A DNA stretch of 64,000 nucleotides from positions 3,800 to 67,799 of the forward strand of contig JBMSYB010000004.1 of assembly GCA_049426285.1 (NCBI GenBank), in the 5' to 3' direction. Source of the DNA: Burkholderiaceae bacterium. GTDB lineage: Bacteria; Pseudomonadota; Gammaproteobacteria; Burkholderiales; Burkholderiaceae_A. The number at the start of each line of letters is the position of its first letter. Within the stretch, counting starts at the first letter, position 1. Position numbers and translations under genes: made by a program. Positions 8,776 to 19,124 of the stretch are shown here, one piece after another. The notes beneath the pieces were generated by a model, which was not told the origin of the DNA, searched no databases, and worked only from the letters and a program-made list of their open reading frames with translations.

Positions 8776-10203
8776 ATGAACGGTATTAATTACAGCGAGA
8801 AAATCCCCAACAACGTCAACCTCAGCGAAGACCGTACCCTGCAGCGGGCGCTCGAGCAGTGGCAGCCCAACTACATTCAGTGGTGGAATGACATGGGCCC
8901 GGAGGGCAGCCAGAACTTCGATGTCTATCTGCGTACAGCGACCAGCGTTGACCCCCAGGGCTGGGCCCAGTTTGGCCATGTCAAGATGCCCGACTACCGC
9001 TGGGGCATTTTTCTCAATCCCGCTGAGGCCGGACGCAAGATTCACTTTGGGGACCATATGGGCGAGAACGTCTGGCAAGACGTGCCGGGTGAGCACCGGG
9101 CCAACCTGCGCCGTATCATCGTTACCCAGGGCGATACCGAGCCTGCCTCGGTGGAGCAGCAGCGTCACCTGGGTCTGACCTGCCCAAGCCAGTACGACCT
9201 GCGCAACCTGTTTCAAGTCAATGTAGAAGAAGGCCGGCACCTCTGGGCCATGGTCTATCTGTTGCACAAGCACTTTGGCCGCGATGGCCGCGAAGAAGCT
9301 GAGGCCTTACTCGAGCGCCGCAGCGGGGAGCAGGACAACCCCCGTATTCTGGGTGCCTTTAACGAGAAGACTCCTGACTGGCTCTCGTTCTACATGTTCA
9401 CCTACTTCACCGACCGTGATGGCAAGTTCCAGCTCTGCGCCCTGGCAGAGTCAAGCTTCGACCCGCTTGCCCGCACCACCCGGTTTATGCTCACAGAAGA
9501 GGCCCACCACATGTTTGTCGGTGAGTCGGGCGTGTCTCGCGTGATTCAGCGCACCTGCGACATGATGAACCAGTTAAAGACCGACGATGTTACTAAGCTG
9601 CGGGCTGCAGGTGTCATCGACCTGCCCACCATTCAGCGTTATCTCAACTTCCACTTCTCGGTCACCATTGACCTCTTTGGTGCCGATGAGTCAAGTAATG
9701 CAGCCACCTTCTTTAGCTCTGGACTGAAAGGCCGGTACGAAGAAGGCAAGCGCATCGACGACCATATTCTGAAGAACGACACCTATAAAGTGCTGCAGGT
9801 TGTTAATGGCCAGCTCGTCGAGAAAGACGTTCCAATGCTCAACGCATTAAACGAAGTCTTGCGCGATGACTACATCAAAGACTCTGTGGGCGGTGTTGAG
9901 CGTTGGAATAAGGTGATAGAAAAGGCTGGTATTGATTTCAGGCTTAAGGTGCCGCACAAGGCCTTTAACCGCAAAATTGGTGCCCTTTCCACCGTGAAGG
10001 TATCACCCGATGGCCGCGTGGTCTCTGTTCAAGAGTGGAATATGCATGTGGAGCAGTGGCTGGCCACCGACGAAGACCGTGCCTATGTGGCCTCGCTGAT
10101 GGGCCGTGTCGTAGAGCCCGGTAAGTTTGCCAACTGGATTGCGCCGCCGGTTATGGGTATCAATCGCCAGCCGGTGAACTTCGAGTACATTCGGTTTAAC
10201 TAA
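8776..10203 (+). CDS. boxB: Benzoyl-CoA 2,3-epoxidase, diiron subunit
   Basis: INYSEKIPNNVNL start, QGDTEPASVEQ, EEGRH and EEAHH diiron motifs, FTDRDGKFQL. Confidence 0.96.
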   Translation: MNGINYSEKIPNNVNLSEDRTLQRALEQWQPNYIQWWNDMGPEGSQNFDVYLRTATSVDPQGWAQFGHVKMPDYRWGIFLNPAEAGRKIHFGDHMGENVWQDVPGEHRANLRRIIVTQGDTEPASVEQQRHLGLTCPSQYDLRNLFQVNVEEGRHLWAMVYLLHKHFGRDGREEAEALLERRSGEQDNPRILGAFNEKTPDWLSFYMFTYFTDRDGKFQLCALAESSFDPLARTTRFMLTEEAHHMFVGESGVSRVIQRTCDMMNQLKTDDVTKLRAAGVIDLPTIQRYLNFHFSVTIDLFGADESSNAATFFSSGLKGRYEEGKRIDDHILKNDTYKVLQVVNGQLVEKDVPMLNALNEVLRDDYIKDSVGGVERWNKVIEKAGIDFRLKVPHKAFNRKIGALSTVKVSPDGRVVSVQEWNMHVEQWLATDEDRAYVASLMGRVVEPGKFANWIAPPVMGINRQPVNFEYIRFN

Positions 10204-10246
10204 GGTTCTCGGCGGTCATATAAAAAAGAAGGCGGAGGAGACAGCC

Positions 10247-11548
10247 ATGGGTATAGACGATAGCAAGGTGCTCAAGCAGCACCTGATAGACCCCGAGATC
10301 TGCATTCGGTGCAACACCTGCGAGGCTACCTGTCCTGTAGGTGCCATCAGCCACGATTCGCGTAACTATGTGGTCGATGCAGAGAAATGCAACTTTTGCA
10401 TGGCCTGCGTGCCGCCATGCCCTACTGGGTCGATCGACAACTGGCGTGTGGTACCGAAGATAAATGCCTATAGCCTCGAGGAGCAGCTGGGCTGGGATAC
10501 TCTGCCCGCAGAGCTCTCAGCAGAAAGCCTTGCAAGTCTGGGTGTTAGTCTTGAAGATACTGCTTCCTCTCTGGTGACGGTGCCTGGCGATGCGGGCGCA
10601 GTTACGGGCGATTCGACTCAGGTTGCCCCCAATGCGCTGCCTGCGGCGGCTGGTGTTTCTGCCAGTCTGCCTCCCTGGTCTGCGGCCCATCCTTACAGCA
10701 ACCTGTATGGGCCGAAGGCCGCACAAAAGACGGTAAAGGCCACGGTTACAGGAAACTTTCGGGTCACCGAGGTCGGCAAAGACTACGATACTCATCATAT
10801 TGTCTTGGACTTCGGCCAGGCGTTCTTTCCGGTGCTTGAGGGGCAGTCATTGGGTATTGTGCCGCCCGGAGTAGATTCCCATGGTCGGGCGCATCATCCG
10901 CGTCAGTACTCGATTGCCAGCCCCCGCAATGGCGAGCGCGCAGGGTATAACAACGTGTCGCTTACAGTAAAGCGGGTGCTCCAGGACTGGAATGGAAACC
11001 CCATACGCGGTGTCGGTAGCAACTACCTGTGCGATCTGCAGGTGGGCGATTCGGTGGACGTTATTGGGCCCTTTGGTTCCAGCTTCCTGATGCCCAACCA
11101 TCCGAAGTCTAATATCGTGATGATCTGCACGGGTACCGGAAGCGCACCCATGCGGGCGATGACCGAATGGCGCCGCCGTGAGCGCAAAAACAGCGCTGCT
11201 GAGCAGGGCAGGCTCATGTTGTTCTTCGGTGCTCGTACTAAAGAGGAGCTGCCTTATTTCGGCCCGTTGATGAACCTTCCCAAAGACTTCATCGACATTA
11301 ATCTGGTCTTCTCCCGTGAATCCGGTAAGCCCAAGCGTTACGTACAAGATGCCCTGCGGGAACGGGCGGCCGATCTGTCTGCCTTGCTGGCCGACCGCGA
11401 TACCTACATCTACGTCTGCGGGCTAAAGGCCATGGAAGAGGGTGTCGTTATGGCGTTGCGAGATGTTGTATCACAGACGGGTGGCGACTGGGCCGGTATG
11501 CATCAGGCCATGAGGGCGGAGGGTAGAATTCATTTCGAGACGTATTAG
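10247..11548 (+). CDS. boxA: Benzoyl-CoA oxygenase reductase subunit (2x[4Fe-4S] plus FNR domain)
   Basis: CIRCNTCEATCP and CNFCMACVPPCP ferredoxin motifs, RQYSIAS, MICTGTGSAP, YVCG, and C-terminal HFETY. Confidence 0.95.
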   Translation: MGIDDSKVLKQHLIDPEICIRCNTCEATCPVGAISHDSRNYVVDAEKCNFCMACVPPCPTGSIDNWRVVPKINAYSLEEQLGWDTLPAELSAESLASLGVSLEDTASSLVTVPGDAGAVTGDSTQVAPNALPAAAGVSASLPPWSAAHPYSNLYGPKAAQKTVKATVTGNFRVTEVGKDYDTHHIVLDFGQAFFPVLEGQSLGIVPPGVDSHGRAHHPRQYSIASPRNGERAGYNNVSLTVKRVLQDWNGNPIRGVGSNYLCDLQVGDSVDVIGPFGSSFLMPNHPKSNIVMICTGTGSAPMRAMTEWRRRERKNSAAEQGRLMLFFGARTKEELPYFGPLMNLPKDFIDINLVFSRESGKPKRYVQDALRERAADLSALLADRDTYIYVCGLKAMEEGVVMALRDVVSQTGGDWAGMHQAMRAEGRIHFETY

Positions 11549-12158: not shown

Positions 12159-12171
12159 TTAGAATTACGGA

Positions 12172-12230
12172 AATTACGGTGACAGTTTACTTAATTCCCG
12201 CAGGGAATTAAGTAAACTGTCACCGTAATT
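12172..12230. repeat. Perfect 28-bp inverted repeat with a 3-nt loop (REP-like palindrome)
   Basis: AATTACGGTGACAGTTTACTTAATTCCC-gca-GGGAATTAAGTAAACTGTCACCGTAATT, checked base by base. AATTACGG is also directly duplicated just upstream (12163-12170). Confidence 0.95.
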
Positions 12231-12350
12231 CCAGCAGACCTTGCGCGACCCCGCGCATACACCGCCGCGTGCAAGGCGGGGAGCGAGAGCAGGGTAAGCC
12301 CAGCAAGCCGTGCGCCGTAGGCTTTGATTCGAGGCATGGGGCGCATAGTG

Positions 12351-12437
12351 CTACCCCTGCCGCGGCGGCTGTTTGCGCCCGACAACGTAGCCGGCGAGAA
12401 AGCCCACCAGAAAAATAATGATCCAGCCAATTACCAT
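12351..12437 (-). CDS. 28-aa single-pass membrane microprotein
   Basis: MVIGWIIIFLVGFLAGYVVGRKQPPRQG: hydrophobic helix with GxxxG motifs and a basic tail, AGGA upstream. Below the ORF-track cutoff. Confidence 0.55.
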   Translation of the reverse strand: MVIGWIIIFLVGFLAGYVVGRKQPPRQG

Positions 12438-12515
12438 GGGACGAAGTCCTTGTTGTGTCGTGGTCGTTGAGGGTAATGCCTGGGTGCCACCGGCCTGTCT
12501 TGCGAACAGCGGCAT

Positions 12516-12842
12516 TTATCCCAAAAACTCCGGCGGCCGCTTTTTCACCCAGTCGATAAATTTGGCAACCTCTGGGTGGGTGCGTAATGACTCCCAGGTA
12601 TTGTACTGTCGGGCAAGTTCCCGGGGTTTGAGGGCCTGGTGAATTTTTAGGTGACAGACTTTGTGGAGCCTGAATTTTTCTCGTCCCCCCTGTGACCGCG
12701 GGGTGAGGTGGTGTTCGTCTACCGTGGGCCCAAGCACCATCAGCCTGTCGCACAAAGGGCAGCGCAGGTCTTCTTCGGGCAGAATCTCTGCGCCGGAGGC
12801 ATCTTGGCCTTCTTTCCATCGGAGGGAACGTTTTGCAACCAT
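12516..12842 (-). CDS. Small HNH endonuclease-family protein
   Basis: CPLC...EHHLTPRSQGG...LHKVCH.KIH is a zinc-finger HNH pattern. Start taken at ATG 12842 because 12866 would overlap the pnuC start. Confidence 0.8.
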   Translation of the reverse strand: MVAKRSLRWKEGQDASGAEILPEEDLRCPLCDRLMVLGPTVDEHHLTPRSQGGREKFRLHKVCHLKIHQALKPRELARQYNTWESLRTHPEVAKFIDWVKKRPPEFLG

Positions 12843-12864
12843 CTTTAGATCATAGTCGCTTCGC

Positions 12865-13434
12865 ATGAACTTGCTGGAATGGCTTGCGGCCGGTCTGGGT
12901 CTTGGGGGGGTCTTGTTGGGTATTGCCCAAAAGACTGCCGTATGGCCCCTATGGATTGCCTCAAGCGCGATCTATGTGGTTATCTATGCACGGCTGGCCC
13001 TCTGGGGGCAGGTGGGGCTTATGGTCTTGTTTATCGGCCTATCGTTATGGGGGCTCTTTCAGTGGCAAAGACAGACCGCCCAGGCGCAGGCCATCCCAGG
13101 TTGGCTTGGCCTGCCCTATTGGCGTGCTTTATTACTGTTTGTTTTTTCGACCTGGCTACTTATGGGGGTTTTTCTTGGTCAGACCGAAAACCCCCATGCC
13201 TGGCTCGATGCCTGGGTCACCACCACAAGCCTCTTTGCCATGGGGCTTATGGCGCGTCGAAGGCTGGACTGCTGGCTTTTCTGGGGCGTTGCTAATGCCT
13301 CTGCGGTGGTCTTGTTCGCACAGCAGGCCCTCTGGGCAACTACCCTTTTGTATACGGTACAACTGTTTTTATCCTGGTGGGGCTTTCAACGCTGGCGGGC
13401 CTCCTCCTCAAGCCACGATGCCGAGAGTTCGTGA
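12865..13434 (+). CDS. pnuC: PnuC-family vitamin transporter (nicotinamide riboside or thiamine type)
   Basis: Multi-TM protein with WLDA..T..SL.A..LMARR.LDCWLFW..AN, containing the WxxWxxxN/D signature. Confidence 0.88.
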   Translation: MNLLEWLAAGLGLGGVLLGIAQKTAVWPLWIASSAIYVVIYARLALWGQVGLMVLFIGLSLWGLFQWQRQTAQAQAIPGWLGLPYWRALLLFVFSTWLLMGVFLGQTENPHAWLDAWVTTTSLFAMGLMARRRLDCWLFWGVANASAVVLFAQQALWATTLLYTVQLFLSWWGFQRWRASSSSHDAESS

Positions 13435-13464
13435 CCTGCGGCATGTCTCTCGCGTTATTGGCTG

Positions 13465-14049
13465 ATGCCTGACACACTCTCAGACCTCGATGTGGCTAGC
13501 CGGGATGCCATGCGGCGGGTTGCTGTTGTAGGGGCAGAGTCGACTGGCAAGACGATACTCTGCCGCTTTCTGGCGCAGCATTTCGAGGGCTGGTCTTTTG
13601 AAGAACCCTTACGCCAGTGGGTTGAGCACTTTGGCCGTAGCCCATCTGCCAATGAGCAATGGGAAATTCTGCAGAGACAAAAGCAGGCCGAAGACCAGGC
13701 CCTAGTGTCTGCCCGAGGCGCGGGTAAGCGCTGGGTGTTCTGCGACTCCGCGCCTCTTGTCACAGCGGTCTATAGCCAGTTTTACTTTCAAGACAACACG
13801 CTCTTCGATCAGGCGATTGCCCACCACAAAGAGGCCTATTCCCACACGTTGGTCTGCGATATTGATCTTGGCTGGCAGGCCGAGCCCGGGATGCGCGATG
13901 GCCCACAGGCACAGTCCACGGTGCGAGGGCTGCTTCTGGAGGCCCTGCAGAGGCATGACATTGGGTATTTCACAGTGCGTGGCAAGGGGGAACAACGGGG
14001 GCAGCTTGCAGCCCAGTTCCTTACCGCGGTAGACTTCGGTCAACGCTAG
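13465..14049 (+). CDS. NadR-like (AAA_28) P-loop kinase
   Basis: Walker A GAESTGKT, FCDS, and D..W..EPGMRDG as in NadR ribosylnicotinamide-kinase-like domains. Adjacent to pnuC. Confidence 0.82.
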   Translation: MPDTLSDLDVASRDAMRRVAVVGAESTGKTILCRFLAQHFEGWSFEEPLRQWVEHFGRSPSANEQWEILQRQKQAEDQALVSARGAGKRWVFCDSAPLVTAVYSQFYFQDNTLFDQAIAHHKEAYSHTLVCDIDLGWQAEPGMRDGPQAQSTVRGLLLEALQRHDIGYFTVRGKGEQRGQLAAQFLTAVDFGQR

Positions 14050-14158
14050 GGGTCCCGACACGTCAGACCGGGTTGCTGGGTCTGATCTCTTGCAGTTAAA
14101 GAGCGGGTGAGACAAACCCTTTGAACCTGATCGAGTTAAGACTTGCGCAGGGAAGCGT
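14043..14158 (+). ncRNA. TPP (thiamine pyrophosphate) riboswitch
   Basis: P1 ACGCT/AGCGT, P2 AGGGGT/ACCCT, GGGTGAGA pyrimidine pocket, GAACCTGATC...TAA...GCGCAGGGAAG core. Lies upstream of a TonB receptor. Confidence 0.9.
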
Positions 14159-14219
14159 CGAGAAGCCTTCCGTGCCGGGTCTTTGGGCCCTGTGTTTTTC
14201 AGGCAATCGTCTTCTCGCT

Positions 14220-14244
14220 GCCTCTCTGCTTTTTTGAAAGAGGC
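14220..14244 (+). promoter_or_regulatory. RBS-sequestering hairpin (riboswitch expression platform)
   Basis: GCCTCT (14220-14225) pairs with AGAGGC (14239-14244), which contains the SD 6 nt before ATG 14251. Confidence 0.55.
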
Positions 14245-14250
14245 CGCCCT

Positions 14251-16437
14251 ATGACATCTGTTCCAAAAGCTCTCAAGACCGTGCGTTCTGCGCTTGCCTT
14301 GGCAGTGCTCGCGAGCCTGCCTCAATCTGTTGTTTATGCGCAGGGGGTTTCTGTTCTACCGGCCGTGGTGGTTACCGAGGCCCCAGAGTCAGCGCTTGCC
14401 CCCCGCGGCGTCTCGATGCCAGCAGGGGCAGACCAGATACCTTGGCTCATGCAGAGTCTGTCTTCTTCGGTAATTACACAAGAGCAACGGGCACAGATTG
14501 GGGGAGGGCGGCTGACCGAGGTGCTGCGATTCGACCCTTCTGTAGAGCCCAATTACAGCCCGCTGGGCTACTTTGAGAGCTTTCAGATACGCGGCTTCCC
14601 AGTGGATCCCGTTCTGGGCTTTCGTGTTAACGGTGTGCCTGTAGTGGGTGAGGCCCCTATCTTCATGGGCAACAAGCAGCAGATCGAGGTCTTGCGCGGC
14701 GCTGCAGGTGTATGGGGTGCCCCCGGGGCGGGCGGTGGGTTGCTGCATTTTGTGACCAAGCGCCCCATGCCTGTGCGCAGTCTGAGCTTCTCTGCGGAAG
14801 AGGAACGCTCGCTTGGCCTAGCCACCGATATCGGAGCAGTCGATAACCAGGGCAATGGCTGGCGACTCAACCTGGGCGCAGACCGTATGCGGCCCTATGC
14901 CAAGGGTGCCGACGGTGAGGCGGCCGGTCTTGCGCTTGCCATCGACCGCCAACTGACAGCAGGCGGGCGGCTTATGTTTGATGTCGAAATCAGTCGCCAG
15001 GAGCAGATCACGCAGCCCGGCAGCCAGTTACTCGGCGGACGTGTATTGCCCCCCTTGCGGCCAGAGACAGTGCTTGGTCTGTCGGAATGGTCTAAGCCCG
15101 TGCGGTTTGCTTCCGCCTTTGCCATGGCCCAGTGGGAGATGCCTCTGCAGAATGACTGGATGGCGACAGCCAAGGCCTCAATGCATCGGGTAAAGACCGA
15201 TGACTACAGCAGCTTTCCATGGGGCAGTCTGGATTTTTCGGGGTTTACAAGCGATTCGTACTTTTCGTCTTCCGGGGACTTCGGCTTCTATGATTATCGA
15301 TCGATCAACGAGCAGCGGTCCACGCAGGCCGTTAGTTTCGAGTTAACGGGAAGAGTTACCTCGGGAGGAATGACCCATACGATTTCCCTTGGGGGGGAGT
15401 TTCTTGAGCATGTATCGACAAAGCCTGATTACCTTTACGCCTACGTTGGGGAGGGCAATGTAATTCGCTCTTCCTGGGCAGGCGGCCCGAGCGACGCGTC
15501 TGGCAGAGATGTCTTCCGTCGCGAGATTCGTCAGTCCAGTCTTTACCTTTCTGATCGGGTGGCCTTGGCCGAGGGCGCGCTCTCTCTAAGTCTGCGTGGG
15601 GTTCAAATGAAGGACAGCTATCGGGCGGATTTCGATCCTGACTTTTACAACCCGATTGATTGGAGAAGTCGCTCAGACCACTGGCTCCTACCTGCCGCCA
15701 CCTACAGCCTCCCACTGCATGGCCAGCAGCAGGTATGGGCGTCTTATCGTCAAGATATCGAGCCCGGTGCCGTCGCTCCCCTGTCGTCTGCCAATAACGG
15801 CCAGGTGCTGCCCGCCCGTCGGCTGCACCTGGTAGAACTCGGTACCAAGGCCGTTCTTCGCCCGCAGCTCGAGGCCTCAGCCGTGGTTTTTCACAGCTGG
15901 CGGCCGCATAACTTTCGCAACGATGATCCGGTCGACCCGCTGGGGAATCCCGCAGGCCGTTACCTGCAGCGCGGAAAAGAGTCGCGCACCGGACTTGAAC
16001 TTGCTGCGGCTGGCCGACTCTCGCCAGGTCTGCAGGCGCAGGTTGCTGCTACCTATTTAGCATCGGATACCTCAGGCCTTGATAATGCCGCCTTTGAAGG
16101 AAAGCAGGCCCTGAACATACCGAAGCTTCGGCTGTCGGCCCTCTTCGACTATCGGCTGCCCCAGGTCTCGGGCCTTTCGGTCTGGGCGGGAGGCTTCTAT
16201 GTTGGTCGGCGCCCCGCTAGCCGGGACAATGCGGTGTATGTGCCTGGCTACGTGCGGCTCGATCTTGGCCTGAACTTTGCCCATAAGGCGGCGGGGCAGC
16301 GTCAGACCTATCGATTCAGTGTTGAAAATATTTTTAACAAATCATACTGGCGCGATGCCGCAGAATTTCTAGGCGATGCCTACCTAATGCCGGGTGCGCC
16401 GAGAATATTTAAGTTCAGCGCAACCACAAGCTTCTAA
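14251..16437 (+). CDS. TonB-dependent receptor, TPP-riboswitch controlled (probable thiamine or precursor uptake)
   Basis: Signal peptide, LPAVVVT TonB-box-like segment, plug motifs (IRGF, IEVLRGAA), VENIFNKSYW and terminal Phe. Start moved to ATG 14251 with a GAGG RBS. Confidence 0.9.
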   Translation: MTSVPKALKTVRSALALAVLASLPQSVVYAQGVSVLPAVVVTEAPESALAPRGVSMPAGADQIPWLMQSLSSSVITQEQRAQIGGGRLTEVLRFDPSVEPNYSPLGYFESFQIRGFPVDPVLGFRVNGVPVVGEAPIFMGNKQQIEVLRGAAGVWGAPGAGGGLLHFVTKRPMPVRSLSFSAEEERSLGLATDIGAVDNQGNGWRLNLGADRMRPYAKGADGEAAGLALAIDRQLTAGGRLMFDVEISRQEQITQPGSQLLGGRVLPPLRPETVLGLSEWSKPVRFASAFAMAQWEMPLQNDWMATAKASMHRVKTDDYSSFPWGSLDFSGFTSDSYFSSSGDFGFYDYRSINEQRSTQAVSFELTGRVTSGGMTHTISLGGEFLEHVSTKPDYLYAYVGEGNVIRSSWAGGPSDASGRDVFRREIRQSSLYLSDRVALAEGALSLSLRGVQMKDSYRADFDPDFYNPIDWRSRSDHWLLPAATYSLPLHGQQQVWASYRQDIEPGAVAPLSSANNGQVLPARRLHLVELGTKAVLRPQLEASAVVFHSWRPHNFRNDDPVDPLGNPAGRYLQRGKESRTGLELAAAGRLSPGLQAQVAATYLASDTSGLDNAAFEGKQALNIPKLRLSALFDYRLPQVSGLSVWAGGFYVGRRPASRDNAVYVPGYVRLDLGLNFAHKAAGQRQTYRFSVENIFNKSYWRDAAEFLGDAYLMPGAPRIFKFSATTSF

Positions 16438-16477: not shown

Positions 16478-16957
16478 GTGAAAACACATGTGCCCGAACA
16501 TGCTGTTCGGGTTTTAAAGCAGTTTCGGGTTATTTTTAGGGCAGTAAAAGAACACTACCGTATGGTGGAACTGGCCACCGGCCTGTCAGGATCTCATGTC
16601 TGGGCCCTGGTGATCATCGAAGAAAACCCAGGCATACGGCCTGGTGCGCTAACCGATCGGCTGGCCATTCACCAGTCCACCGCAAGCAATATCGTGCGGC
16701 ATCTGGTTTCTGAAGGGTATGTGCTCAGGGCCCGATGCCCCGATGATGCACGAGCCTTCGAACTCAGTGCAACGCCGAAGGCCCGCGAGCTGCTGGCCAA
16801 GGTGCCGGAGCCCAAGATTGGCATTCTGGTGCAAGCCCTGGCAGAAATGCCGCAGGGTTCGGTGGCGGGCCTCGAAGGCTATCTGGATCACCTCATTGCC
16901 CGCATGGGCCAGTCGGGCGATGCTGAGGCTGGGCTTAAGCCGCTCGCTGATCTATAA
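16478..16957 (+). CDS. MarR family transcriptional regulator
   Basis: Winged-helix pattern LAIHQSTASNIVRHLVSEGYVLR...DDAR, GTG start with AAGGGAGG RBS. Confidence 0.85.
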   Translation: MKTHVPEHAVRVLKQFRVIFRAVKEHYRMVELATGLSGSHVWALVIIEENPGIRPGALTDRLAIHQSTASNIVRHLVSEGYVLRARCPDDARAFELSATPKARELLAKVPEPKIGILVQALAEMPQGSVAGLEGYLDHLIARMGQSGDAEAGLKPLADL

Positions 16958-17039: not shown

Positions 17040-19124
17040 TTAGGCCATCTTCAGGTCGGGGTACCGAACCGAGGAGACCAGATCTTGTACTTCGCGCTTC
17101 GGTGCTGGTGTGATCAGCGACACGATGATGATGATGGCGAAGCCAAGCGGTACACCAAAGATACCGGCTGAGATGGCAGAGATACCCCACCACTCGTCAG
17201 GTCCAATGGGCACAGAGCGCGCCACACCATAAAACACTTCACGCATCCAAGGCTGGTTGAGTGTCATGTAGTAGAAGGTGATCGCAATACCGCCAATCAT
17301 GCCCAAGCTTGCGGCAATACCGGTGGTGCGCTTCCAGAAAATTCCCAGCACCAGGGCCGGGAAGAACCCAGCCGCCGCAAACGAGAACGCCGCACTCACC
17401 AGGAAGAGAATGTCTGCGGGCTTCTGTTGCGCTACCAAGGCCGCCAAAATGGCTACGATCAACAGCATGGTCTTGGAGATGGCTACGCGACGCGACACCG
17501 GTGCATTGGGGTCAATCATCTTGTAGTACACATCGTGGGACAAGGCATTGGCGATGGTAAGCAGCAGGCCGTCAGCGGTTGACAGCGCAGCCGCCAGGCC
17601 ACCTGCAGCCACCATGCCTGACACTACATACGGCAGGCCTGCGATCTCGGGCGTCGCCAGAACGACCACATCATTACCAATGCGAATCTCAGCGAGCTGG
17701 ACAATACCATCCTTGTTTATGTCTACGATAGACATGAGGGAGGCATCGACAGCATTCCAACGCTGGACCCAGTCAGGTAGTGCTGCAATTTGTGAGCCCA
17801 CGATATCGTTGTACATCACAAACTTTACGAGCACGGCCAACGCAGGCGCCGTGAAGTAGAGCAGGAAGATGAAGAACAATGACCATGTCACTGAGTTACG
17901 CGCCTCACGTACCGATGGCGTAGTGTAGAAACGCATCAGAATATGGGGCAGGGCAGCGGTACCCACCATAAGACAGAAGATCAGCGCCAGGAAGTTTTTC
18001 CGTGCTTTATCTTTTGCGGCCTCGTCCTTGCCAGGGAATGTCTCGGCATGGTTGCGTGGGGGGGTTGCCCTAGCAGCAAGCGCTCTTTCGCTATTAAGCC
18101 CCTTTGTGTAAGCCTCAATGTCTGCCGGAAACTTTGCTACAGCATCTTCAGCCGCTTTAACGGCGGCATCGTCTGCCTTACTGGCCTTCAGTTCTGCAAC
18201 TTTAGTCTCGAGTGCAGCTTTGTCTGCCGCGTAGGCTGCAGGCGCATCTTTAAGCTTCTCAACGGCAGCTGCAGACCGGTCTTTAAAGATCTGCCGAACC
18301 TGCTGTTCACCCGGGTCGGCATTGATCTTCTTCTCAAGCTCGGTCACCTTAACCAGTTGCTGACCATAAATGAGCTGCGGGATGGGGAAGCCGGTTTGCT
18401 TTACCGAGAGCCAGACCACCGGAATCATGTAGGCAATGATCAGGATGATGTACTGGGCCACCTGCGTCCAGGTAACGGCACGCATACCACCCAAGAACGA
18501 GCAGACCAGAATGCCAGCGAGCCCCAGGAACACTCCAAGTTCGAAGCTCACACCGGTAAGGCGGGTGGTAATGAGACCCACGCCATAGATCTGGGCTACT
18601 ACATAGGTGAAGGAGCAGAGAATGGCAATGGCTACCCCAATAAACCGGGGAATGGTGCCACCATAGCGCGCGCCCAAGAAGTCTGGAATGGTGTACTGAC
18701 CAAACTTACGCAGGAACGGCGCCAAGAACAAGGCAACAAGCACATAGCCGCCTGTCCATCCCATAATAAAGGCCAGACCACCGTACCCACCAGCATATAG
18801 ACCACCAGCCATACCAATGAACGACGCTGCGGACATCCAGTCGGCGCCGGTTGCCATTCCGTTGAAGACCGCGGGCACTCGTCGACCGGCCACATAATAG
18901 TCGTCGGCCACGTTGGTGCGGCTCATGATGCCGATACCGGCATAAAGAATGACCGTTGCGGCTAGGAAGACGTAACCAATGCCTGCCTTCGACAGCCCCA
19001 TCTGCTCGGCAATCGCCAAAAGAATGCAGAATCCAAGAAAGCCACCGGTATAAAACCCGTAGACTTTCTTAAGTTGAGCATTAAAGGCCTTTTGCGAGCC
19101 CCCTGCATCAAGTAATCCCGCCAT
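17040..19124 (-). CDS. actP: Sodium/solute symporter, ActP/VC_2705 type (acetate or monocarboxylate uptake)
   Basis: YYVAGR.VP...NGMATGADWMSAASFI, GMRAVTWTQVAQY, MVGTAALPHIL.RFYT, AAALSTADGLLL, with a long soluble insertion. Confidence 0.88.
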   Translation of the reverse strand: MAGLLDAGGSQKAFNAQLKKVYGFYTGGFLGFCILLAIAEQMGLSKAGIGYVFLAATVILYAGIGIMSRTNVADDYYVAGRRVPAVFNGMATGADWMSAASFIGMAGGLYAGGYGGLAFIMGWTGGYVLVALFLAPFLRKFGQYTIPDFLGARYGGTIPRFIGVAIAILCSFTYVVAQIYGVGLITTRLTGVSFELGVFLGLAGILVCSFLGGMRAVTWTQVAQYIILIIAYMIPVVWLSVKQTGFPIPQLIYGQQLVKVTELEKKINADPGEQQVRQIFKDRSAAAVEKLKDAPAAYAADKAALETKVAELKASKADDAAVKAAEDAVAKFPADIEAYTKGLNSERALAARATPPRNHAETFPGKDEAAKDKARKNFLALIFCLMVGTAALPHILMRFYTTPSVREARNSVTWSLFFIFLLYFTAPALAVLVKFVMYNDIVGSQIAALPDWVQRWNAVDASLMSIVDINKDGIVQLAEIRIGNDVVVLATPEIAGLPYVVSGMVAAGGLAAALSTADGLLLTIANALSHDVYYKMIDPNAPVSRRVAISKTMLLIVAILAALVAQQKPADILFLVSAAFSFAAAGFFPALVLGIFWKRTTGIAASLGMIGGIAITFYYMTLNQPWMREVFYGVARSVPIGPDEWWGISAISAGIFGVPLGFAIIIIVSLITPAPKREVQDLVSSVRYPDLKMA

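Follow-up and report, generated by a model that had tools for sequence, protein, structure and literature searches.

The thiamine uptake system of Bacteroides thetaiotaomicron combines the TonB-dependent receptor OMthi, the channel PnuT and the thiamine pyrophosphokinase (TPK) Tnr3, under the control of thiamine pyrophosphate (TPP) riboswitches (PMC5613172). For Shewanella woodyi PnuT, a Pnu channel has been proposed to work with a cytoplasmic thiamine kinase, and the vitamin is trapped in this scheme because thiamine monophosphate (TMP) and TPP are not substrates of the channel (PMC5749112). Escherichia coli salvages thiamine in two steps, from thiamine to TMP with ThiK and from TMP to TPP with ThiL (PMC12632268). 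A further pair, PnuC and NadR, serves the salvage of nicotinamide riboside (NR) in Enterobacteria, Haemophilus and Lactococcus, according to PMC7221760 (Kurnasov 2002 as cited there). Here we describe a locus at positions 12865–16437 of a 64,000-nucleotide stretch of DNA (the window, part of contig C4 in an assembly of 2.16 Mb and 96.9% completeness) from a small aquatic betaproteobacterium of the Burkholderiaceae. Its three genes, for a PnuC-family channel, a NadR-like kinase and a TonB-dependent receptor, all point in the same direction and are accompanied by a single RNA element, a TPP riboswitch.

The locus is probably a thiamine acquisition module of an obligate auxotroph, serving uptake, trapping as TMP and subsequent conversion by ThiL. 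The TonB-dependent receptor would take thiamine across the outer membrane, and ample TPP would cause the riboswitch to shut down receptor synthesis, probably by hiding the ribosome-binding site. The PnuC-family channel would let thiamine diffuse through the inner membrane, where the kinase, a P-loop protein resembling the ribosylnicotinamide kinase (RNK) domain of NadR, would phosphorylate it to TMP. Unable to exit via the channel, TMP would be trapped, and ThiL, which is encoded elsewhere in the genome, would turn it into TPP. The features of the interval, in window positions, are as follows.

12865–13434, plus strand: PnuC-family (Pnu) vitamin channel, 189 amino acids (PF04973, 116.8 bits against a cut-off of 27.3, E = 1.4e-33; TIGR01528, 59.7 bits against 42.45)
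13465–14049, plus strand: standalone NadR-RNK-like AAA_28 P-loop kinase, 194 amino acids (PF13521, 83.2 bits)
14038–14170, plus strand: TPP riboswitch aptamer (RF00059, 59.5 bits against a gathering threshold of 54.3, E = 3.9e-9, full model 1–105)
14177–14199, plus strand: weak hairpin of 5 bp with a T run behind it, resembling a terminator, right after the aptamer (consensus scan only)
14220–14244, plus strand: hairpin GCCUCU...AGAGGC, predicted to be able to sequester the Shine-Dalgarno sequence of the receptor gene
14251–16437, plus strand: TonB-dependent outer-membrane receptor, 728 amino acids, with a signal-peptide-like N-terminus (Plug PF07715 and barrel PF00593; TIGR01783, 241.4 bits against 223.5)

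An earlier, sequence-only reading had placed a channel, a kinase, a riboswitch and a receptor here, and profile and covariance matches confirmed all four. The start of the receptor gene had to be corrected: the open reading frame (ORF) as listed begins with a TTG at 14143, within the riboswitch, and the plausible start is the ATG at 14251, which is followed by the signal-peptide-like segment.

In its components the locus resembles the B. thetaiotaomicron system, as both have a TPP riboswitch, a TonB-dependent receptor, a Pnu channel and a cytoplasmic kinase for trapping the vitamin. However, in place of a TPK a P-loop NadR-RNK-like kinase would do the trapping here, and it is predicted to make TMP, which depends on ThiL for further conversion, and not TPP. 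The riboswitch, which heads the operon in B. thetaiotaomicron, is found here between kinase and receptor. With PnuC–NadR the locus shares a Pnu channel and an RNK-fold kinase, facilitated diffusion followed by phosphorylation as the presumed principle, and the NadR fold with both its Walker motifs, A and B. Unlike a full NadR, the protein consists of the kinase domain only, with neither an NMNAT nor a helix-turn-helix (HTH) domain (TIGR01526, 53.5 bits against a cut-off of 341), and eight subfamily-specific residues replace NadR-conserved ones; the pair is also linked to TPP riboswitches and to the loss of thiamine synthesis, and not to NAD genes. The predicted chemistry, a thiamine kinase yielding TMP followed by ThiL, is that of E. 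coli, but ThiK has the APH fold (EC 2.7.1.89) and is unrelated to the AAA_28 kinase. The kinase does not match the ThiK model (NF007620) and would thus resemble ThiK in its predicted role only, not by family membership. Thiamine uptake in E. coli proceeds through ThiBPQ, whereas no ThiB above cut-off was found in the window genome. Finally, the pairing of a Pnu-family channel with a proposed cytoplasmic thiamine kinase is shared with S. woodyi PnuT, although the motif of the latter (WxxWxxxD, with Asp166) ends in Asn144 in the channel described here.

The gene content of the window genome defines the need that such a module would meet. Profile searches found no ThiC, ThiE/TenI, TPK or ThiK. 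Since ThiC and ThiE are missing, neither thiamine nor its phosphate should be synthesized, and import of thiamine should be obligatory. ThiL is present (237 bits), and its retention together with the absence of TPK and ThiK indicates that a step from thiamine to TMP is required for which there is no recognised enzyme. The presence of NadA indicates that NAD can be made de novo, so that NR salvage is possible yet dispensable. The genome also encodes the NMN deamidase PncC/CinA; on contig C31 (positions 9028–11213) a gene of this family and the ThiL gene share a strand, with about 760 bp between them.

Of 401 genomes sampled from the GTDB order of the bacterium, 36 contain kinase homologues (E ≤ 1e-10), and 34 of their loci were fetched. 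The kinase is present in 15 of the 54 genomes without ThiC and in 21 of the 347 with it, counts that are descriptive because the relatives are not independent, and that include one unpublished genome (G692, ThiC present) on which no conclusion is based. In the bacterium's own family, all five kinase-bearing genomes are devoid of ThiC, and all five kinase-free genomes, one of them a congener, have it. ThiL was found in each of the 13 tested kinase-bearing genomes without ThiC, while a TPK was found in none of the 35 other kinase-bearing genomes. The absence of TPK from these 35 genomes and from the window genome would also agree with a kinase that transfers pyrophosphate and makes TPP directly in place of TPK, in which case ThiL would be irrelevant. 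This we regard as very improbable, as the protein folds like P-loop kinases of the nucleoside or NMP type, a class that transfers a single γ-phosphate, and ThiL is kept in 13 out of 13 auxotrophs.

The gene neighbourhood ties the pair to TPP riboswitches. Directly upstream of the kinase lies pnuC in about 30 of the 34 fetched loci, and a receptor homologue adjoins the pair in about 20 of the 35 other kinase-bearing genomes, every time with a TPP riboswitch 5′ of the receptor. According to a genome-wide RF00059 search of these 35 genomes, they hold only 1–4 TPP riboswitches each at sizes of 1.6–6.4 Mb, and the recurrent adjacency is therefore far beyond chance. It occurs in three gene orders. 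Layout A (pnuC–kinase–[TPP]–receptor) is found in the window genome, in four congeners and, from two other families, in four more genomes; layout B ([TPP]–receptor–pnuC–kinase) in three genomes of two families, with junctions of 27 nt or overlapping genes; and layout C, in which pnuC–kinase faces [TPP]–receptor convergently, in seven genomes of two families, plus one with a gap of 5 kb. A further family contributes three genomes where the pair stands alone and a homologous receptor preceded by a riboswitch is encoded elsewhere. Among the findings that would speak against its proposal, the sequence-only reading had named a lack of synteny between pnuC and the receptor in relatives; in about 20 of the 35 genomes the two are syntenic. 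Wherever receptor homologues were located in a genome, a TPP riboswitch precedes them, and we propose that the protein is a thiamine receptor controlled by the TPP riboswitch.

All 12 other genomes with layouts A and B lack both ThiC and ThiE and have one TPP riboswitch each. This bears on the cargo of the pair. The sequence-only reading had offered thiamine or a thiamine precursor as the substrate of the kinase, and thiamine is the better supported by the auxotrophy with ThiL, the operonic orthologues and the residue signature described below, while a precursor is unlikely here because ThiE is missing. More broadly, the pair might handle some other thiamine-related compound, be it a precursor (pyrimidine or thiazole) or a product of degradation; alternatively, the kinase might be promiscuous for NR and thiamine. 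In other bacteria, transporters of precursors are likewise under the control of TPP riboswitches, prototrophs with the convergent layout keep the pair too, and riboswitch-linked channels have either N or D in their motif, which could reflect different cargos. Precursors cannot be joined into thiamine phosphate, however, in the window genome or in the 12 of 12 others with co-directional layouts, all without ThiE and ThiC, and ThiL, kept in all of these genomes, acts on TMP. We thus consider a cargo other than thiamine, or a kinase with both substrates, improbable.

The kinase has a Walker A motif (G23-AESTGKT-30) and a Walker B aspartate (D94), both invariant in the alignment. Its AlphaFold2 model (pLDDT 92.4) is most similar among solved structures to NadR (PDB code 8x7f, TMq 0.75); NadR in complex with NR (PDB code 6gyf) was also returned, followed by deoxynucleoside and thymidylate kinases. 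Its profile match, its Walker A (GxxxxGK[ST]) and Walker B (Asp) motifs and its RNK fold assign the protein to family AAA_28 (PF13521), that of the NadR RNK domain. It is the one true AAA_28 gene of the window genome, and a locus search with the kinase as query returned a single locus (L001). Taken with the Pfam and NCBIfam matches, which likewise indicate PnuC and NadR, the structural matches favour a different view of the locus, namely that pnuC and the kinase are an ordinary NR uptake pair, supplying NMN to NAD via PncC, next to an unrelated thiamine receptor gene. The residues of the kinase argue against this. We aligned 25 kinases of riboswitch-linked clades with 5 NadR-type sequences, a small set for comparison, and with 10 unlinked standalone kinases. 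Eight positions (L49, R58, P60, Q65, P97, Y103, S104 and T128 in window numbering) are 88–100% conserved in the riboswitch-linked clades and different in the NadR-type and unlinked groups. Residues conserved in NadR RNK domains (the G in EYGR, F/Y, and W-H or F-C) are replaced by L49, Q65 and Y103-S104, respectively, and R58-x-P60 is added.

In a phylogenetic tree the standalone kinases are split from the NadR RNK domains (support 86/70). Layout A forms a single clade (98/73), and the window kinase falls into a clade (99/99) comprising all members of layouts A and B as well as the further family that has the pair alone. It follows from this placement that the window kinase is orthologous to kinases transcribed behind a TPP riboswitch. 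An exhaustive phmmer search with the kinase against 1.84 billion representatives yielded 1485 clusters at E ≤ 1e-3 and 370 at E ≤ 1e-10. At least six of the eight signature residues are present in 145 of the 150 best representatives, while the two hits of NadR length carry two. Literature searches returned no description of a NadR-like thiamine kinase, and the protein is most likely a previously unrecognised type of thiamine kinase, as judged from signature, synteny and gene content.

The signature extends beyond the order. One representative (P0090, locus L122) lies on a contig of 60% GC, suspected to be actinobacterial, with phosphoketolase, acetate kinase and aminopeptidase N as neighbours. 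The order on this contig is a TPP riboswitch (59.4 bits), a 208-residue pnuC-like ORF of the N type (WPMWMIVN) and then the signature kinase. A 368-residue “fusion” protein reported for P0090 was rejected as a mis-called ORF that runs over the separate pnuC gene. Altogether eight signature representatives were sampled; pnuC lies directly upstream of the kinase in five of them but not in the other three, and the contig of P0090 was the only one with enough upstream DNA to show a riboswitch. No TPP riboswitch was found on four short signature-kinase contigs (L126–L129), where the flanking DNA is too little to judge, nor at two distant, low-GC PnuC–AAA_28 pairs (L117 and L121). On two metagenome contigs (L124 and L129) the signature kinase has no adjacent pnuC and is divergent from an ABC-2 type exporter pair; on L129 a gene for transketolase, a TPP-dependent enzyme, lies 3 kb from the kinase.

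The channel is the sole Pnu gene of the window genome. In its sixth transmembrane helix, W137-LF-W140-GVA-N144 fits the family motif WxxW(x)3[D/N], the last position of which is Asp166 in S. woodyi PnuT, where it is needed for thiamine binding (PMC5749112). This Asp is thus not found in the window channel, but N-type channels directly behind TPP riboswitches exist both in layout B and on the distant contig of P0090. For this reason Asn144 weakens a role in thiamine uptake without overturning it, and the Asp/Asn position may not define thiamine specificity. The sequence-only reading had set the segment AMGLMARR of this channel apart from NR-type PnuC, said to have a Gln. The segment is present (residues 125–132, nucleotides 13237–13260), but the contrast fails, since the true NR transporter PnuC of E. 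coli reads AMILMTRK there; a Gln at the aligned position is found in many riboswitch-linked homologues. Neither the D/N position nor the “AM versus Gln” position separates riboswitch-linked from NR-type channels, and both were discarded as discriminators. A phylogeny of PnuC and PnuT, which that reading had called for, was calculated for 34 proteins, among them PnuC of E. coli and two homologues of PnuT that are encoded next to a TPK and were obtained from a class-wide TPK search. The latter two nest among the kinase-linked channels and E. coli PnuC lies outside with weak support; the window clade is a long branch, and its placement is not decisive. Pairwise identities are 25.6% to E. coli PnuC and about 25% to TPK-linked PnuT. 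A search of solved structures with the channel sequence returned nothing relevant.

The riboswitch lies between kinase and receptor, and is the only one of its kind in the genome according to the RF00059 search. Its 5′ part, corresponding to P1 and its junction, shares 12 nt with the end of the kinase gene (14038–14049), whose TAG stop codon (14047–14049) is located within the aptamer, and P3 carries a long insertion. The same position is seen in relatives (loci L045–L048 and L050–L053). The gap between the kinase and receptor genes leaves no room for a promoter or a terminator. Upstream of pnuC no NAD-type or other riboswitch was found, and a consensus scan, the only method applied here, detected no σ70-like site on the plus strand between 12100 and 14250. 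Regulation of the receptor would act through a Shine-Dalgarno sequence 7 nt before the ATG at 14251, with which the hairpin at 14220–14244 can pair, and sequence reading reveals a similar anti-Shine-Dalgarno pairing in relatives of the genus. The hairpin at 14177–14199 is possibly part of the expression platform as well. Single-sequence folding of 14030–14275 was no better than that of shuffled sequences (z = −0.5), and our description of the expression platform accordingly relies on reading the sequence.

Only the receptor is visibly TPP-controlled at this locus. The sequence-only reading had implied riboswitch control of pnuC and the kinase, which must be withdrawn here since the riboswitch is downstream of both genes; the two are probably expressed without TPP control. 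Either the pnuC–kinase transcript would read through into the riboswitch and receptor, or an internal promoter would hide in the 3′ end of the kinase gene. A search for sequencing runs returned 24, of which 20, from nine studies, contain the stretch; none of these is listed as RNA. A ribosome terminating on the kinase gene would cover the 5′ half of the aptamer, and if the genes share a transcript, translation of the kinase could be coupled to riboswitch folding. The locus exemplifies a riboswitch that is set within a string of co-directional genes and overlaps the end of the preceding coding sequence.

Several observations weigh against a thiamine module. The channel has Asn144, as does E. 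coli PnuC, and not the thiamine-binding Asp of S. woodyi PnuT, and neither the transporter tree nor the pairwise identities separate PnuT from PnuC. The fold of the kinase and its nearest solved structures are those of NadR NR kinases, and source databases annotate its relatives as nicotinamide riboside kinase. PncC/CinA is present, so that NMN formed from NR could be used. At this locus the riboswitch lies downstream of both genes of the pair. Furthermore, several clades of standalone kinases are unlinked to a riboswitch (the neighbours of these pairs are housekeeping genes that give no clue to NAD or thiamine), and three of the eight sampled members of the signature subfamily have no adjacent pnuC. 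The N-type motif, PncC, the downstream riboswitch and the annotations all speak for the NR uptake pair introduced above. Such a pair would, however, leave unexplained the repeated placement beside a TPP-riboswitch receptor in three gene orders, one of which is a tight operon headed by the riboswitch; the distant lineage in which the riboswitch directly precedes an N-type pnuC and a signature kinase; the correlation of kinase presence with the loss of ThiC and ThiE; and the replacement of NadR-conserved residues. It would also leave a genome that makes NAD de novo without any way to use thiamine. On this evidence we judge the NR pair unlikely, and keep to the thiamine acquisition module.

On balance we favour a wider proposal, in which the large and widespread subfamily, whose signature is carried by at least 145 among the best 150 clusters at 50% identity, would be a non-orthologous thiamine kinase that feeds ThiL, is systematically misannotated as nicotinamide riboside kinase and fills the gap in thiamine phosphorylation in many B1-auxotrophic aquatic bacteria, while the riboswitch embedded at the present locus would regulate only the costly receptor. 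If this is true, the missing step of B1 salvage would be supplied for bacteria without TPK or ThiK, as a non-orthologous replacement for EC 2.7.1.89, and the annotation of hundreds of protein clusters labelled “nicotinamide riboside kinase / PnuC” would be corrected. Inferred B1 and B3 dependencies would change for freshwater and other aquatic communities, and the Asp/Asn position of the Pnu motif alone would not set the specificity for thiamine versus NR.

Two genes follow the receptor in the window.

16478–16957, plus strand: MarR-family regulator (PF12802/PF01047), 40 nt 3′ of the receptor gene
17040–19124, minus strand: sodium:solute symporter, 694 amino acids

The MarR-family regulator is a conserved neighbour within the genus (72–99% identity by tblastn), but we do not claim it as a part of the system. 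In the relatives of the genus, the receptor is mostly followed by this regulator (99% identity in the nearest congener) and the 694-residue symporter, and no link of either to thiamine is evident.

Upstream of pnuC, a listed ORF at 12220–12819 (minus strand) was dismissed as spurious; the real gene there is 12516–12866 (minus strand), which runs divergently from pnuC and extends to the start codon of the latter. It encodes 116 residues, or about 108 from an internal Met, with an HNH-like pattern (CPLC...DEHHLTPRSQGG...CHLKIH) and no Pfam match. Its identity in four congeners is 97, 79, 69 and 69%, and in the closest of them the conservation of PnuC (84%) and of the kinase (65%) is far lower. 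Just past a MaoC-like gene, positions 12168–12233 form a perfect palindrome with 31-bp arms (GGAAATTACGGTGACAGTTTACTTAATTCCC) and the loop GCA. This element recurs at 20 or more sites of the genome, frequently at the ends of contigs. Its AT content is much higher than that of the DNA around it, and it looks like a dispersed repeat of the REP or MITE type.

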